Source of the DNA: a virus
Taxonomy: Duplodnaviria; Heunggongvirae; Uroviricota; Caudoviricetes
Reading direction: 5' to 3' (one strand)
DNA: 10,066 nucleotides
Virus record (IMG/VR): IMGVR_UViG_2663763227_000008
Coordinates: 1 to 10,066 of that record
The notes under the pieces were generated by a model. The model had not been told where the DNA came from. It saw nothing but the letters and a program-made list of their open reading frames with translations, and searched no databases. The position numbers and the translations under genes are program-made. Every line of letters starts with the position of its first letter. The stretch's first letter is position 1. This document shows, piece after piece, positions 588 to 5,039 of the stretch.

Positions 588-1311
<724 letters not shown>

Positions 1312-1316
1312 TGAAA

Positions 1317-1343
1317 GGTCGCACAGAAGTGCGGCCTTTTTTT
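1317..1343 (+). terminator. Intrinsic terminator immediately 3' of cI
   Basis: ggtcgcac-agaa-gtgcggcc: 8-bp stem (one G-U), 4-nt loop, followed by seven T (1337-1343), starting 6 nt after the cI stop codon. Confidence 0.7.
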
Positions 1344-1441
1344 ATGATTAATATATATAAATATCAATAACATAAGCATGTTATATAGCAATTAACATAC
1401 CTATCTACAAACGAGGTATACATCAGCATTTGTTCAGTCAA

Positions 1442-1536
1442 CCTGCAAAACATCACATCTCCTGCGCATTTTTAATTCACCTGCTAATTTTACATTCTCC
1501 TGCACTTTTTTATTGCTCCTGCATCATTGTGGTGCT
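1442..1536 (+). repeat. Five tandem 19-bp direct repeats, each beginning CCTGC (iteron-like array)
   Basis: CCTGC at 1442, 1461, 1480, 1499, 1518 (exact 19-bp period). Units: cctgcaaaacatcacatct / cctgcgcatttttaattca / cctgctaattttacattct / cctgcacttttttattgct / cctgcatcattgtggtgct. Confidence 0.8.
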
Positions 1537-1543
1537 TTAATAT
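1513..1543 (+). promoter_or_regulatory. Candidate sigma70 promoter for the ParA-like gene (-35 TTGCTC 1513-1518; -10 TTTAAT/TAATAT 1536-1543)
   Basis: Hexamer-like matches at 17-19 bp spacing overlapping the last repeat unit, ~25 nt upstream of a strong SD aaaggagg (1553-1560). Pattern match only. Confidence 0.3.
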
Positions 1544-1567
1544 TCAAAATTTAAAGGAGGAATTCAT

Positions 1568-2611
1568 ATGAGCACTGTAGTTGAGTCAGTAATGGCACGC
1601 TATGCACAAGTTGTTGAGGAAGGTTACGTCGTAGATGGCGGGCCAAAATTCAAAAGTTATGCAGTTTCCAATCTGCGCGGTGGTGTTGGTAAGTCCACGA
1701 TGACATTCAACCTCGCCTATGAGCTGTCACGACGTAACTCCGTATTAGTGGCTGACTTATGCCCGCAATGTAATTTAACGGAGACACTATTGCGTGGTGA
1801 AAAACCGGTTGTAACAATAGCTAATGCACTGACACCAAAAATGCTGGGTCCAGCTTTTGGTGAGCAGCCAGAAGATATTTCATATCGAGTAAGTAATTTC
1901 TGCCCAGATTTTAAAGGTGGTAAGGCATGTTATGCGATTCCAGGTGATCCTGAGCTATTCGCTTTCCCATCAAGCATGTATCAACAACTACAAGTAGCGC
2001 TATCTCGCGGAGAACCAAAAGCAGTATCAACACTATTAAATTCTCTTCGCGCAATAATGAACGATGAAGCGAAAGACAAAAAATGCGAAATTTTATTGAT
2101 GGATACAAGCCCTTTCTATGCTGGAGGAACACACCTAGCATGGTGCGCGTCTGAGGCATTGATTATCCCTGTACGCGTAGATGAACACTCAATTGAGTCA
2201 CTTCATCTCACAATGGAAATGCTGGCAAATAAATCAAAAGATTTTGTATTATGGAATGAGCGTGCGGGTGGGCTTGGGGCTCCAAAAGTAGCAGCGATCG
2301 TAATGACAATGGCTGGTTCAAAAAGCCGTAAATCATCAACACCAGGTCGCGCATCTCAAATGTACATAGAGAGAGCTGTAAAAATCGCTGAAAAATACAG
2401 TCATCTCTTTGCCGATGAAGATGTTAGCAAAGCAATTGTGGTTACAGATGATTTTGTATCAAGCGGGCAAATTAGTGGGGCTGAAAGCATACCAATATCA
2501 CAGCTAAAAGTTGGTCGCTTCCATACAGTAAGTGAAGGGAAAAGGTTACAAGTTAACCAGTCGGTTACTCGATATCAAAGACAACTTAAGTATCTGGCAA
2601 GTATTCTTTAA
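1568..2611 (+). CDS. ParA/MinD-family P-loop ATPase-like protein (347 aa) occupying the rexAB-equivalent slot
   Basis: Strong SD aaaggagg 7 nt before the ATG. Motifs read from the translation: deviant Walker A AVSNLRGGVGKST (res 32-44), Walker A' VLVADLCPQCNLT (59-71), Walker B EILLMDTSP (174-182); ~100-aa C-terminal extension with no recognised motif. Confidence 0.85.
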   Translation: MSTVVESVMARYAQVVEEGYVVDGGPKFKSYAVSNLRGGVGKSTMTFNLAYELSRRNSVLVADLCPQCNLTETLLRGEKPVVTIANALTPKMLGPAFGEQPEDISYRVSNFCPDFKGGKACYAIPGDPELFAFPSSMYQQLQVALSRGEPKAVSTLLNSLRAIMNDEAKDKKCEILLMDTSPFYAGGTHLAWCASEALIIPVRVDEHSIESLHLTMEMLANKSKDFVLWNERAGGLGAPKVAAIVMTMAGSKSRKSSTPGRASQMYIERAVKIAEKYSHLFADEDVSKAIVVTDDFVSSGQISGAESIPISQLKVGRFHTVSEGKRLQVNQSVTRYQRQLKYLASIL

Positions 2612-2616
2612 GCAAG

Positions 2617-2644
2617 AACCCGGCCTCAGCGCCGGGTTTTCTTT
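2617..2644 (+). terminator. Intrinsic terminator 3' of the ParA-like gene
   Basis: aacccggc-ctcagc-gccgggtt: 8-bp stem, 6-nt loop, then T-rich ttttcttt; starts 6 nt after the stop codon. Confidence 0.7.
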
Positions 2645-2790
2645 GCCTAACCCCCCCAAAAAAACACATAACCAATTGTATTTATTTGAAAATTAATAGA
2701 TACAACTCACTAAACATAGCAATTCAGATCTCTCACCTACCAAACAATGCACCCCTGCAAAAAATAAATTCATATAAAAAACATACAGAT

Positions 2791-2851
2791 AACCATCTGC
2801 GGTGATGAATTATCTCTAGCGGTGTTGACATAAATACCACTAGCGGTGATA
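2791..2851. promoter_or_regulatory. Left operator: OL3 2791-2807, OL2 2811-2827, OL1 2835-2851
   Basis: aaccatctgcggtgatg / tatctctagcggtgttg / taccactagcggtgata; lambda-like 17-bp sites, each differing at one position from the lambda OL sequences as I recall them. Confidence 0.85.
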
Positions 2852-2853
2852 CT
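2825..2853 (+). promoter_or_regulatory. pL promoter (-35 TTGACA 2825-2830; -10 GATACT 2848-2853)
   Basis: ttgacataaataccactagcggtgatact, 17-bp spacing; same hexamers as lambda pL, overlapping OL2/OL1. Confidence 0.85.
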
Positions 2854-2921
2854 AAACACATCAGCAGGACGCACTACTCACCAGGTCGGTGAATATACAA
2901 CGATTCGAATATGAATCTACG

Positions 2922-2936
2922 GCGCTGACAAAGCGC
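2922..2936 (+). promoter_or_regulatory. nutL boxB RNA hairpin, P22-type GACAA pentaloop
   Basis: gcgcu-GACAA-agcgc: 5-bp stem, GACAA loop, ~65 nt downstream of the pL start and upstream of the N-like gene. No convincing boxA identified. Confidence 0.65.
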
Positions 2937-3101
2937 AATAACCAAAGTGAACTTTGGGGTGTGGTGAAGGGTTCATGGACGGGAATATGTCGCACGTAAA
3001 GCGGCGAGGCCTGCGGGACTATTGCCGAATTGAAGTAGGCCGAAACAGGTCGAAATGGGTCTCCCACCTACCACACCACCAAAGATCATCAGGAGGTCTA
3101 T

Positions 3102-3485
3102 ATGACACGCAGAACTCAGTTCAAAGGCAATTCACGTTCTCGTCGTCGTGAGCTTTTAAAGGCAAAGGCATTAGCTAACGGCGTGCTGGCCCGCGAAGAA
3201 GCAATAAGTTCAGAAGTATTACACCGCCCTACTCTAAGCAGAGCGCAGATTCAGGCTAAAGGTACTCACGAAACGCCTGAGCGCATAGAAGACGCTAAGC
3301 CAATTAAGTTCATGGCACAGGACGTGATCTGGCAACAGAAAGAATACAGACGCAATCTGGAGCGAGCGGCCATTGTGTACGCGAATGAGTTTGGACATAA
3401 GCAACCAGAAACTGGTGTATGTCTTCCAAACGTAGCCATTTACGCGGCAGGCTACCGGAAATCAAAACAACTGACGGCGAGGTGA
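3102..3485 (+). CDS. N: N-family transcription antiterminator (P22 gp24-like)
   Basis: SD aggagg before the ATG; first gene after pL/nutL. N-terminal arginine-rich motif GNSRSRRRELLKAKALA; C-terminus LPNVAIYAAGYRKSKQLTAR resembles the P22 gene 24 product C-terminus as I recall it. Confidence 0.75.
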   Translation: MTRRTQFKGNSRSRRRELLKAKALANGVLAREEAISSEVLHRPTLSRAQIQAKGTHETPERIEDAKPIKFMAQDVIWQQKEYRRNLERAAIVYANEFGHKQPETGVCLPNVAIYAAGYRKSKQLTAR

Positions 3486-3854: not shown

Positions 3855-3916
3855 GGAGCAATGTCGCTCGTAACTAAACAGGAGCCGACTTGTTCTGATT
3901 ATTGGAAATCTTCTTT

Positions 3917-3942
3917 GCCCTCCAGTGTGAGGGCCTTTTTAT
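3917..3942 (+). terminator. Intrinsic terminator (tL1-like position)
   Basis: gccctc-cagtgt-gagggc stem-loop followed by ctttttat; lies inside the pL operon, so it would be N-suppressible. Confidence 0.6.
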
Positions 3943-4006
3943 ATGCATACCAATAACGCTTCACTTGAGGCGTTTTCGTTATGCAATCAAACAGAAGGAG
4001 CATCCT

Positions 4007-4177
4007 ATGCAACAGTTCGCTATTGCAGGGGCGGCATCGGTTCGCCCTTTCAACCCGATTTTATCGGTACAGCATTCACGAAAAAACATTTTAACCGGAG
4101 CAGACTTTAAACAACCAAGAATGAAAAGTTTGCTCGAAAAGCTTTGGGATATTTTGAAACAACAAGGCCGTCCATGA
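4007..4177 (+). CDS. cIII: CIII-like small protein (56 aa)
   Basis: SD aggag before the ATG at 4007. MQQFAIAG... N-terminus and SLLEKLWDILKQQG segment resemble lambda CIII (MQYAIAG...; ...WKRLIDILNQPG) from memory. The longer TTG-initiated frame from 3902 is rejected because it runs through the terminator hairpin. Confidence 0.5.
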   Translation: MQQFAIAGAASVRPFNPILSVQHSRKNILTGADFKQPRMKSLLEKLWDILKQQGRP

Positions 4178-4332
4178 GTTTTACAGATAACTGGTCAGAC
4201 GAAGAATTCATTCGTCAGATGAAAGAATTAATCGGTAACGAAGGAGATATTCATGTCACTTGCAACCACAGTGAAGGAGAGCAAGTTACAGAGACGCATG
4301 TACACGCAGAAAGCTCTCTGGTATCGCCATAA
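4174..4332 (+). CDS. Hypothetical small acidic protein (52 aa)
   Basis: ATG overlaps the upstream stop (ATGA) suggesting translational coupling; translation MSFTDNWSDEEFIRQMKELIGNEGDIH...; no recognisable motif. Confidence 0.4.
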   Translation: MSFTDNWSDEEFIRQMKELIGNEGDIHVTCNHSEGEQVTETHVHAESSLVSP

Positions 4333-4433
4333 TGGCGACCGCGAAGGAATGCGGGTATGCCTTAATTTGTCCCGAGTCGAAGTATTAAATCAGCGTTATT
4401 TCCTTGGGCCATGTCCATTCTGAGAACAAACAT

Positions 4434-5039
4434 ATGAGCAAAGAATTTTACGCAAGACTGGCAGCTATTCAGGAGAATCTGAACGCGCCAAAAAATCAGT
4501 ACAACTCATTCGGTAAATATAAATACAGAAGCTGCGAAGACATTCTTGAAGGCGTTAAGCCGTTACTGAATGGCCTGTTTTTATCAATCAGCGATGAAGT
4601 TGTGTTGATTGGTGATCGGTATTACGTGAAAGCCACGGCAACTATTACCGATGGCGAAAACAGTCATACGGCAACCGCTCTTGCACGAGAGGAAGAAAGC
4701 AAGAAAGGAATGGATTCTGCACAAGTTACGGGAGCTACAAGCTCTTATGCACGCAAGTATTGCCTCAATGGTTTGTTCGGCATTGATGATGCGAAAGATG
4801 CAGATACAGACGAGCATAAACATCAGCAGAACGCAGCAGCAAAGCAATCAAAACCATCACCTACACCTGAACAGGTTCTAAAAGCATTCACTGACGCAGC
4901 AATGCAGAAAAACACCGTGGAAGAGCTTAAACAGGCGTTCGCCAAAGCGTGGAAGATGCTCGAAGGCACACCGGAGCAGCACAAAGCGCAGGACGTTTAC
5001 AACATCAGACGAGACGAATTAGAAGGAGCGGCTGCTTAA
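4434..5039 (+). CDS. erf: Erf-family single-strand annealing recombinase (P22 Erf-like)
   Basis: Translation MSKEFYARLAAIQENLNAPKNQYNSFGKYKYRSCEDILEGVKPLLNGLFLSISDEVVLIGDRYYVKATATITDGENSH... closely resembles P22 Erf as I recall it; ATG 4434 preferred over the upstream TTG at 4404. Confidence 0.8.
   Translation: MSKEFYARLAAIQENLNAPKNQYNSFGKYKYRSCEDILEGVKPLLNGLFLSISDEVVLIGDRYYVKATATITDGENSHTATALAREEESKKGMDSAQVTGATSSYARKYCLNGLFGIDDAKDADTDEHKHQQNAAAKQSKPSPTPEQVLKAFTDAAMQKNTVEELKQAFAKAWKMLEGTPEQHKAQDVYNIRRDELEGAAA

Follow-up and report, generated by a model that had tools for sequence, protein, structure and literature searches.

The window, a 10,066-nt stretch of DNA taken from a caudoviricete record (IMGVR_UViG_2663763227_000008), contains a gene for a ParA/MinD-class P-loop ATPase (1568..2611, + strand), with a Shine-Dalgarno sequence (AAAGGAGG; 1553..1560, + strand) located 7 nt upstream of its ATG. 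The open reading frame is real, given that its 347-aa product, hereafter the ParA-like protein, has 998 homologues (E<=1e-3), the majority of which are full length and >58% identical. Upstream of the gene, we identified five CCTGC boxes spaced exactly 19 nt apart (box starts 1442, 1461, 1480, 1499 and 1518; 1442..1522, + strand), which may serve the ParA-like protein as an operator or as a nucleation site. Gene and boxes form a 1.3-kb self-contained cassette (window ~1312-2616) inserted between cI and OL/PL of a lambda-immunity prophage, in the slot that rexAB occupies in lambda.

A cargo slot in the prophage immunity region

The cassette is located directly downstream of the prophage repressor, at a place that varies between otherwise similar phages. 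The repressor gene is of the lambda cI type (598..1311, + strand); its translation matches that of lambda cI, and in identical E. coli prophages the annotation of this gene reads LexA-family protein. An intrinsic terminator with a 12-bp stem and a T-run (1313..1347, + strand), recovered in the terminator scan and folding at -18.5 kcal/mol (z -6.2), delimits the cassette on its 5' side and insulates it from cI transcription, and a similar GGTCGCAGAGATGCGGCC hairpin is found 5' of the array in other enterobacterial copies with different upstream genes. At the other end, the ParA-like gene is closed off by a second intrinsic terminator (2617..2644, + strand; -18.8 kcal/mol, z -3.7), which is already part of the slot in other phages: from window ~2617 onwards, megablast finds homology to the sequence that precedes PL in HK97, mEp234 and HK106. 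Lambda-type OL operators and the PL promoter (TTGACA-17-GATACT; 2776..2853, + strand) make up the right border of this cI-to-PL cargo slot, and the equivalent PL is annotated in mEp234.

The slot holds HicAB in mEp234, and in other phages the region between cI and N/PL holds BstA or RexAB; BstA, too, is accompanied in its locus by a DNA element of its own, aba (PMC8585504). RexAB of lambda, BstA of BTP1 and HicAB of mEp234 thus share with the ParA-like protein the position directly downstream of a prophage repressor, but have no sequence or fold relation to it. Furthermore, whereas co-transcription with the repressor is proposed or known for BstA and Rex, the ParA-like gene follows a strong terminator and has its own putative promoter. 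Because of the terminator after cI, expression of the ParA-like gene in the lysogen is not guaranteed.

Another orphan ParA-like gene, STM14_3218, lies without ParB in the immunity region of the lambdoid prophage Gifsy-1 (strain 14028s). Its expression is unchanged by mitomycin C, and deletion of the three genes STM14_3218-3220 increased the phage yield 2-4 fold and abolished RtcR activation (PMC9879122). However, STM14_3218 is an 840-bp gene (~279 aa) that was studied together with two downstream genes, and the likeness established between the two proteins is that of the generic ParA fold only.

Fold and active site of the ParA-like protein

Searches against Pfam matched the ParA-like protein to AAA_31 with 50.6 bits (cut-off 27) and to CbiA with 38.4 bits, and the protein has the features of the superfamily, namely, a P-loop GK[ST] in the context of a deviant Walker A motif, a Walker B Asp (D179) and the ParA/MinD fold. 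It is a divergent ParA/MinD (SIMIBI)-class P-loop ATPase of an uncharacterised and very conserved subfamily, with ~60% identity across phyla. Pfam, NCBIfam and PADLOC returned generic ParA matches only, both for this protein and for its distant relatives, and we found no published study of the family (WP_021568301) in the literature. A scan of genome contigs with the single ParA-like protein as the query yielded only two near-identical Pseudescherichia loci.

The AlphaFold2 model (pLDDT 86.9, pTM 0.89) is a single domain, and the protein is predicted to have a complete ParA fold. The earlier note had described an extension of ~100 aa at the C-terminus and suggested that it could be an effector or target-recognition domain; both suggestions have to be abandoned. 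In the hhalign alignment, residues 30-255 map onto residues 4-192 of Bacillus subtilis Soj, and the ~94 residues in excess of Soj are spread along the chain, with ~26 at the N-terminus (helix 4-18), ~37 inside 84-170 and ~31 after 255, the latter including the hairpin 318-328. The supposed extension is the C-terminal part of the normal ParA fold with short insertions, and both the AlphaFold2 model and the hhalign alignment place it within the canonical fold. We recognised no sequence-specific DNA-binding domain in the model, a plain ParA fold with insertions, and no obvious effector (nuclease, transmembrane segment or toxin) in the protein. In a by-eye alignment, the Arg residues that Soj employs for non-specific DNA binding appear as Asp-Asp-Phe (294-296).

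The nucleotide-binding motifs read L36-R37-G-G-V-G-K42-S-T (Walker A) and D63-L-C65-P-Q-C68-N (switch I). In both alignments examined, by HMMER with Thermus thermophilus Soj and by hhalign with B. subtilis Soj, R37 falls into the column of the signature Lys and C65 into that of the catalytic, water-activating Asp of DLDPQ, corresponding to Soj D44. Each of the two residues is present in 121/121 close homologues. In all 121 members, the core family therefore lacks the signature, trans-acting Lys of KGGxGK[ST], replaced by Arg, and the water-activating Asp of the switch I DxD, replaced by Cys. The first Asp of switch I (D63) is retained, K42, the cis P-loop Lys, is invariant in the family, and in more distant full-length relatives the signature-Lys position is occupied by K, C, S or E. 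The earlier note had reported Arg at the signature-Lys position and an atypical ParA-class ATPase, and both observations hold, with the two alignments in agreement and the Lys to Arg and Asp to Cys substitutions fixed in the family.

The Cys pair singled out in the same note fared differently for its two members. C65 replaces the catalytic Asp throughout (121/121), but C68 is not conserved, being present in 86/121 close homologues (71%) and otherwise replaced by G, R, T or A. Because C68 varies among the 121 homologues, there is no conserved CxxC, and an Fe-S or CxxC metal site of the Mrp/NBP35/NifH type was rejected on this ground. The match to PF10609 is limited to the P-loop and, with 21.2 bits, is below the cut-off of 27.1.

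The same Arg and Cys pair is found in BcsQ (YhjQ), a regulator of enterobacterial cellulose secretion, in which R10 takes the position of the signature Lys, like R37, and C39 that of the switch I Asp, like C65. The pair is thus unusual but has a precedent, and BcsQ was purified as an ATP-bound sandwich dimer with weak ATPase activity (PMC7840130). The R37 and C65 substitutions can reasonably be expected to alter ATP hydrolysis or the dynamics of dimerisation, as the earlier note had suggested for the Arg, and the BcsQ precedent strengthens this expectation. However, the similarity between the two proteins is limited. In BcsQ, T15 replaces the cis P-loop Lys, whereas K42 is invariant in our family, and the BcsQ Arg is flipped away from ATP; given these differences, the analogy with an 'ATP-locked' protein may not transfer. 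Moreover, BcsQ acts with BcsR, BcsE and BcsA in the bcs operon, whereas the ParA-like protein is encoded by a lone gene accompanied by a DNA array. Some database sources label homologues of the ParA-like protein 'BcsQ', but its score against TIGR03371 (cellulose_yhjQ) is 26.7 bits, compared to a cut-off of 157.85, its context is a prophage immunity region without a bcs operon, and structurally it is closer to McdA, ParA and Soj than to BcsQ. McdA is also devoid of the signature Lys.

CCTGC boxes at the promoter of the ParA-like gene

By reading the sequence, we located a putative sigma-70 promoter for the ParA-like gene (1513..1541, + strand), consisting of a -35 element TTGCTC (1513-1518), a 17-nt spacer and an extended -10 element TGcTTTAAT (1533-1541), which falls under the threshold of a consensus scan. 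The last CCTGC box overlaps the -35 element. Homologous loci have equivalent elements, TGnTTAAAT or TATAAT, downstream of the last box, and both there and in the window the boxes overlap -35 and/or -10 elements.

Three phased CCTGC boxes occurred in 0/200 shuffles. Arrays of 3-13 coding-strand boxes, 19 or 9 nt apart, are present at all the core-family homologues examined with enough upstream sequence (~115 distinct regions from several phyla), including those in non-phage contexts. In 57 loci, the 220 nt upstream of the gene contained 362 boxes on the coding strand vs 15 on the opposite strand, the box density was 28.9/kb in this region vs 1.8/kb elsewhere, and spacings across loci were 19 nt (180 times) and 9 nt (60 times). 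The result was replicated in 65 further distinct metagenome loci, each with at least three boxes, in a scan that was seeded with a narrow alignment and returned core-family loci only. The linkage between the ParA-like gene and the head-to-tail CCTGC boxes at its promoter, with their spacings of 19 or 9 nt, is obligate. We found no second CCTGC array in the rest of the window or of the loci; second arrays had been considered as a regulon or an extra centromere, and this idea was dropped, the few clusters being a pentapeptide-repeat coding region or chance occurrences. An Rfam search of positions 1200-3200 gave sub-threshold matches only, driven by the terminator hairpin, so that no known RNA element explains the array.

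The CCTGC array was not found upstream of K-type relatives or of a 32%-identical homologue. Distant subfamilies have other repeats at the same place, namely, TAGTTTTCCA-N15-TGGAAAACTA in one case and AAACTTCCA, twice at 19 nt, in another, which indicates that divergence of the protein goes along with a change of the cis element. This co-variation of box and protein is clear for two distant subfamilies, which differ in their repeats, and ambiguous for the others.

Although it falls short of proof, this linkage points to the ParA-like protein as the putative binder of the array. Alternatively, the array could be bound by another factor, or be only a structural or promoter element, and an ATPase without sequence-specific DNA binding would act via protein partners, like BcsQ, FleN/FlhG and MipZ. 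Such an arrangement would be in line with the lack of an identifiable DNA-reading domain in the model and with the poor fit between direct repeats and a symmetric dimer. We nevertheless consider it unlikely because the array travels with the ParA-like gene across phyla and mobile-element types with no other gene conserved alongside, because a host factor of identical 5-bp specificity would hardly be expected in Enterobacteria, Pseudomonas, Myxococcota and soil phyla alike, and because the repeats at this position differ in diverged subfamilies.

Repeat arrays over a promoter are familiar from DNA partition systems. Type Ia ParAs (P1 ParA and F SopA) repress their own promoter by binding to motifs repeated within it, and autorepression of this kind is the behaviour that we infer for the ParA-like protein at the CCTGC array. 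However, type Ia proteins have an N-terminal winged-HTH domain of ~100 aa, whereas only ~30 residues (with helix 4-18) precede the P-loop of the ParA-like protein, and type Ia systems include ParB and a separate parS site. SopA (NF010259) was not among the NCBIfam matches of the protein.

By contrast, the ParA-like protein shares with Soj, the type Ib ParAs (ParF, delta and pNOB8 ParA) and McdA the length class of small ParAs that lack the N-terminal HTH, and its array resembles the centromere/operators of type Ib systems, in which direct repeats over the parA promoter are the classic layout. The array could accordingly be read as the centromere of a canonical partition ParA whose task would be to maintain the phage or element as a stable episome, but several observations render this extremely improbable. 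We found no ParB, ParG, omega or other centromere-binding protein encoded in the window, the stretch between cI and PL included, and none is conserved in ~200 loci, whereas Soj, type Ib ParAs and McdA have ParB, ParG, omega or McdB as partners. Instead of low-copy replicons, integrated prophages and transposons carry the cassette. Furthermore, the score against NCBIfam ParA_partition (NF041546) is 36.7 bits vs a cut-off of 180, and the protein, which also has the ~94 extra residues described above, carries other amino acids in place of both residues behind the ParB-stimulated ATPase cycle, the signature Lys and the catalytic Asp.

Carriage by prophages and IS1-family transposons

In 5/5426 genomes, E. 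coli prophages that differ in their flanks encode an identical ParA-like protein. The gene adjoins cI-like repressors in 37 loci, including one in a Pseudomonas prophage, and int/attP in Ralstonia phage RsoM1USA; the K-type distant relative in Pseudomonas phage phi297 also adjoins a repressor. Plain chromosomal sites without a nearby repressor carry the cassette as well. Given that most of the prophage copies adjoin a cI-type repressor, with which the gene converges in some loci, that the same holds for the phi297 relative and that RexAB fills the same slot, the ParA-like protein might modulate the lysis-lysogeny switch, as proposed for lambda RexA, with the immunity region or the function of the repressor, and not incoming DNA, as its target. 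We regard this as very unlikely, however, because the same cassette is cargo beside int/attP, in IS1-family transposons and at chromosomal sites without a nearby repressor, and because the window and the loci contain no CCTGC arrays elsewhere.

We identified 16 complete IS1-family elements that carry the ParA-like gene and a transposase inside the terminal repeats. The ends of these elements were located by mapping homology breakpoints; most of the 16 have matching inverted-repeat ends, perfect inverted repeats included, and 13/16 are flanked by 8-bp target duplications. In 35/80 metagenome loci, the ParA-like gene is accompanied by an IS1-family DDE transposase and/or the terminal repeats of that element. 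Its order and orientation relative to the transposase vary: the gene may be upstream of the transposase, either divergent or on the same strand (the latter in a Sorangium locus), or downstream on the same strand. IS1-family elements of the same kind also carry other, unrelated passengers. The cassette is thus carried by two unrelated kinds of mobile elements, temperate phages and IS1-family transposons. Clustering of the neighbours in 58 loci revealed no gene conserved across all contexts.

In the window, there is no transposase and no IR-like sequence within 3 mismatches, and the status of a transposon passenger was therefore rejected for this copy, although it holds for relatives.

The association with transposases could indicate that the ParA-like protein assists an IS1-family transposase as a transposition helper, or serves it as a target-immunity ATPase, comparable to MuB, TnsC or IstB, and that the prophage copies are transposase-less derivatives that were retained or co-opted. 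Like these helpers, it is a predicted ATP-dependent DNA binder whose gene can lie beside a transposase, here inside IS1-family terminal repeats. The CCTGC array is located in the divergent promoter region common to both genes. ATP-dependent DNA binding of the ParA type is also mechanistically comparable to that of MuB. Yet MuB, TnsC and IstB are AAA+ proteins rather than members of the SIMIBI/ParA class, and IS1-family elements normally need no helper. The variable gene order and orientation and the unrelated passengers, the latter typical of cargo, also argue against a dedicated helper. Cassette and array are equally and fully conserved in many prophages and at chromosomal sites that have neither transposase nor inverted repeats, the window included. 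A role as a transposition helper therefore appears quite unlikely.

A possible function on mobile elements

The overall best explanation, which we consider moderately probable, is that the locus is an autonomous cargo cassette that places a ParA-like ATPase, autorepressing via the CCTGC array, on mobile elements. By analogy with BcsQ, the protein would form a long-lived, ATP-bound sandwich dimer with slow hydrolysis and operate as a switch rather than an oscillator. The dimer would bind its own CCTGC array cooperatively and thereby repress the promoter of its own gene, which would keep the amount of protein in the lysogen at a set point. In the transposon versions, array binding might also repress the divergent transposase promoter.

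As for the benefit to the mobile element, we tentatively propose that the cassette excludes competing phages or other mobile DNA, or defends against them, at the DNA level, a plausible role that falls somewhat short of being probable. The CCTGC array might double as a high-affinity 'self' site. In its most specific form, the proposal would amount to a new single-protein system, in which phased CCTGC arrays are recognised as the 'self' site by a ParA-like dimer that hydrolyses ATP slowly, and the ATP-dependent DNA binding of this dimer excludes or silences competing phage, plasmid or transposon DNA or confers insertion immunity; this version is doubtful. A search of PADLOC-DB v2 matched the protein to no known or candidate defence family, the sole hit being a P-loop-only match to PDC-M28B (E 1e-3), and its relatives had none.

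ParA/MinD ATPases are understood as two-component positioning machines, composed of the ATPase and a partner that stimulates hydrolysis. In the present subfamily, no partner is conserved in all contexts and both residues that drive partner-stimulated hydrolysis are replaced. Together with the phased array and the carriage on mobile elements, this suggests an unstudied mobile-element function, with exclusion, defence, immunity and element regulation as the candidates. In the single-protein version given above, the protein would be a ParA-class counterpart of Rex, BstA or MuB that requires neither ParB nor a separate effector. Next to BcsQ, the family is a second natural case in which to study the effect of the Lys-to-Arg and Asp-to-Cys substitutions on the SIMIBI ATPase cycle. 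The cassette, with only 1.3 kb and a single gene, comes from E. coli and is directly testable.

As a separate observation on the array, the CCTGC boxes are asymmetric and directly repeated, an unexpected target for a two-fold symmetric dimer.

Active site and fold of the ParA-like protein

The ParA-like gene (window 1568-2611, + strand) encodes an orphan ParA-fold ATPase of 347 aa in which an Arg/Cys variant of the active site is fixed. Its translation reads L36-R37-GGVG-K42-ST and D63-L-C65-PQ-C68-N, as stated in the earlier note; Pfam assigns the protein to the ParA/MinD P-loop class (AAA_31/CbiA), and PHROGs labels it ParA-like. In the HMMER comparison with PDB sequences, 'SNLRGGVGKST' was aligned with Soj 'NQKGGVGKTT' and 'DLCPQCN' with Soj 'DLDPQGN', which reads 'DLAPQGN' in the D44A mutant entry 2bek, and hhalign with B. 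subtilis Soj concurs with the placement of both motifs. Therefore, R37 occupies the signature-Lys position, as the earlier note had proposed, and C65 that of the water-activating Asp. Across the query and its 120 top database hits (n = 121 aligned sequences), R37 and C65 are each present in 121/121 sequences and K42, D63, and D179 are invariant, but C68 is found in only 86/121, so that the Cys pair claimed for the A' motif is conserved in its first member and not in its second. More distant full-length relatives retain the Cys, and at position 37 they have the canonical Lys (NNKGGVGKS) or another residue; thus, retention of the Cys extends further than that of the Arg, which is the hallmark of the core subfamily. 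Assignment to BcsQ (26.7 bits against a curated-model cut-off of 157.85) or to partition ParA (36.7 bits against 180) was rejected.

The Arg/Cys combination is not unique, because BcsQ has both: R10 occupies the trans-acting Lys position, and C39 marks an Asp-to-Cys (or Ser) change at the water-activating residue (PMC7840130). Purified BcsRQ is an ATP-bound sandwich dimer with just weak ATPase activity (PMC7840130). By analogy, the combination suggests that dimerization is uncoupled from hydrolysis, and the ParA-like protein probably forms a long-lived ATP dimer. BcsQ differs, however, in lacking the cis Lys as well (T15); in the window family, K42 is invariant.

The AlphaFold2 model is confident (pLDDT 86.9, pTM 0.89) and consists of one domain. 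Residues 30-255 correspond to Soj 4-192 in hhalign; therefore, Soj 193-253 corresponds to residues 256-347. Within this region, a conserved block (TDDFVSSGxISGAxSIPI ... KRLQVNxS ... YL.S) appears, by eye, equivalent to the Soj 'IPRNVRLSEAPSHGxPI ... C-terminal helix' segment. Given the single-domain model and the Soj mapping, there is no appended domain, and the ~100-aa C-terminal extension suspected previously is part of the ParA fold. The ~94 extra residues are accounted for by a helix at the N-terminus, by insertions in 84-170, and by short insertions near the C-terminus, among them a hairpin at 318-328.

Related proteins of ~340-350 aa form a ParA-like sister family that combines a canonical NNKGGVGKS Walker A with a Cys still present in DxCPQAN. 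Members are Pseudomonas phage phi297 gp27 (3968-5020 of homologous locus L059) and a protein encoded at 3898-4911 of locus L061. The phi297 gene also lies directly downstream of a CI-like repressor, and in L061 a single transposase gene is flanked by a copy with Lys at the signature position on one side and a copy with Arg on the other.

The phased CCTGC array

The 255-nt spacer between cI and the ParA-like gene contains a strong terminator (1313-1340), an array of CCTGC boxes, and a plausible promoter. Five boxes start at 1442, 1461, 1480, 1499, and 1518, with an exact 19-nt spacing; three phased boxes occurred in 0/200 shuffles. In the putative promoter, TTGCTC (1513-1518) overlaps the last box; a 17-nt spacer and TGcTTTAAT (1533-1541) follow. 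The gene is obligately linked to this operator-like array: the arrangement was found upstream of every core-family homolog with usable upstream sequence, in E. coli, Pseudescherichia, Pseudomonas, Chromobacterium, Sorangium, Cupriavidus, and Ralstonia phage RsoM1USA, as well as in 48 IMG/VR contigs and another 65 distinct loci from metagenomes. In the first 57 loci taken together, the 220-nt regions before the gene contain 362 boxes on the coding strand against 15 on the other, and box density is 28.9/kb upstream versus 1.8/kb elsewhere. The box-to-box distance is 19 nt in 180 cases and 9 nt in 60, a difference of one helical turn; apart from a tendency to be T-rich, the intervening spacers are unconserved, and A predominates at the position that follows the box. 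Such a pattern favors a model in which duplex DNA is read by units bound in a head-to-tail fashion.

The simplest reading of the linkage is that the ParA-like protein binds its own array, with the rival that another factor does so. No neighbor gene conserved beside the ParA-like gene in all contexts was found. Two distant subfamilies with the Arg carry different repeats at the place of the array, and further loci are ambiguous. These subfamilies share 32-45% identity with the window protein; of their promoter-proximal repeats, one is the inverted repeat TAGTTTTCCA-N15-TGGAAAACTA, which overlaps a TTGACA promoter (L145/L151 2927-2963), and the other is AAACTTCCA twice, 19 nt apart (L160 2942-2969). 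The CCTGC array was not found upstream of the Lys-type relatives phi297 gp27 and L061 3898-4911, nor upstream of a 32%-identical homolog. If the protein does bind its array, it probably does so cooperatively and thereby represses its own promoter.

A second CCTGC cluster, at L027 8580-8715, was rejected as a 15-nt-period pentapeptide-repeat coding region unrelated to the array. In the window and, at the equivalent position, in the enterobacterial copies L004, L012, L016, L026, L027, and L054, a terminator hairpin lies ahead of the array; it reads GGTCGCAGAGATGCGGCC and then Ts, with minor variants (GGTCGCACAGAAGTGCGGCC in the window). It is kept despite differing upstream genes, a cI-like repressor or a Cys-rich 265-aa protein, and appears to travel with the cassette.

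Cargo in prophages

The window covers the immunity and early-left region of a lambdoid prophage and runs opposite to the lambda map. It contains cro (297-497, − strand), the product of which we take to match lambda Cro; lambda-type cI (598-1311, +); the ParA-like gene; lambda-like OL operators with PL (TTGACA-17-GATACT; about 2776-2853); an N-like antiterminator (3102-3485); and, after it, PL-operon genes such as Erf, with Erf-type recombination genes at 4404-5039. From this order, the ParA-like gene fills the position of lambda rexA-rexB; a RexA-like modulator of the lysis–lysogeny switch is one rival reading. The cI-N interval has been described as a hotspot of mosaicism, with RexAB and BstA among its residents; the BstA locus itself contains a DNA-based element for self-immunity (PMC8585504).

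Megablast matches to HK97, mEp234, and HK106 begin at ~2617, just past the stop codon, where a second terminator lies. The cassette has its own predicted promoter and flanking terminators. In mEp234, the cI-to-PL slot (L165 365-1495) holds a HicA-like toxin, a HicB-like antitoxin, and a hypothetical gene, so the slot swaps cargo between phages. Among 5426 complete E. coli genomes, just 5 have the ParA-like gene. In the three inspected, it adjoins a lambda-type cI and the protein is identical, whereas the prophages differ in replication and recombination modules. A cI-like S24 repressor gene lies near the ParA-like gene in 37 viral and genomic loci, mostly directly upstream on the same strand, as in a Pseudomonas chlororaphis prophage. 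In P2-like Ralstonia phage RsoM1USA and a Cupriavidus prophage, the gene adjoins int/attP.

Window 2617-3100 (terminator, OL/PL, nutL) is 93-95% identical to HK97, mEp234, and HK106 and also matches >1100 E. coli genomes; in contrast, cI and cro are lambda-type, and the operators read as lambda OL1-OL3 with single-base changes. With an N that is presumably closer to that of phage 21 or Stx phages than to lambda N, the prophage would be a mosaic of lambda immunity, non-lambda N, and Erf-type recombination genes. In RsoM1USA, gp56 (L058 6087-6857), a DUF3800 protein, is encoded directly 3' of the ParA-like gene, at the end of the genome on the far side of attP, a position corresponding to the cargo site that P2 uses for old.

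Cargo in IS1-family transposons

An IS1-family DDE transposase (Pfam DDE_Tnp_IS1, 31.8 bits, cut-off 24.1; NCBIfam transpos_IS1, 72 bits, below the model cut-off of 100) adjoins the ParA-like gene in 31/80 environmental metagenome loci, usually divergently, with the CCTGC array in the common intergenic region. Homology between loci of different contexts ends sharply at a conserved end, ...TCAAACTG(G/A)CCCACTACC, with matching inverted repeats GGTAGTGGGnCAGTTTGA on the opposite side. We delimited 16 complete elements of 2.6-4.9 kb (L106 149-3220, L127 106-3643, L119 808-4348, L007 5161-10053, and 12 other loci), from soil and freshwater metagenomes and Sorangium cellulosum, with terminal inverted repeats of 18-22 bp and clear 8-bp target-site duplications in 13/16. 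They carry the transposase, the array, and the ParA-like gene as a unit, in some cases joined by other small passengers. Of the 80 metagenome loci, 35 have the transposase and/or its repeats, and 9 have a cI-like repressor. No element terminal repeats were found around the window copy, and the cassette also resides at plain chromosomal sites. Thus, two unrelated kinds of mobile element carry the cassette as cargo.

The IS1 linkage would fit a role in transposition like that of MuB, TnsC, or IstB, as helper or immunity factor, a reading weakened by the copies without a transposase. True partition is highly improbable, given the lack of a ParB and the integrated state of the carriers. Given the slot occupied and the cargo-like behavior, we tentatively favor a speculative benefit that acts at the DNA level, in exclusion, defense, or competition among mobile elements; PADLOC gave no support for a defense role and the protein has no recognizable effector, so we consider this step possible rather than probable. 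A loose functional precedent might be the Gifsy-1 immunity region, where an orphan ParA-like gene belongs to a three-gene region affecting phage yield and RtcR activation (PMC9879122), although that protein is different, shorter, and has partner genes. Databases label the subfamily just 'ParA family protein', and our literature search found no paper on it, its array, or its transposon carriage. Precedents exist for the fold and the active-site variant, and none for the partner-less, array-linked, mobile-element-borne configuration.

A small ORF of ~80-100 aa, rich in Lys/Arg/Gly-Gly-Lys (…GRKGGLKGGKARAESLTAKQRSEIAKKAAAQRW), is conserved in 8/16 transposon copies (L077 2405-2692, L106 2897-3145, L119 4038-4334, and five other loci) and absent from the window; in seven it is oriented convergently toward the 3' end of the ParA-like gene, and in L099 it lies upstream on the same strand. 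Extra passenger ORFs in some elements (L119 923-1642, L087 1249-1818) resemble, by eye, a Panacea/DUF4065-type protein and a Gp49/RelE-like toxin; if so, cargo of the toxin-antitoxin kind would accompany the ParA-like gene.
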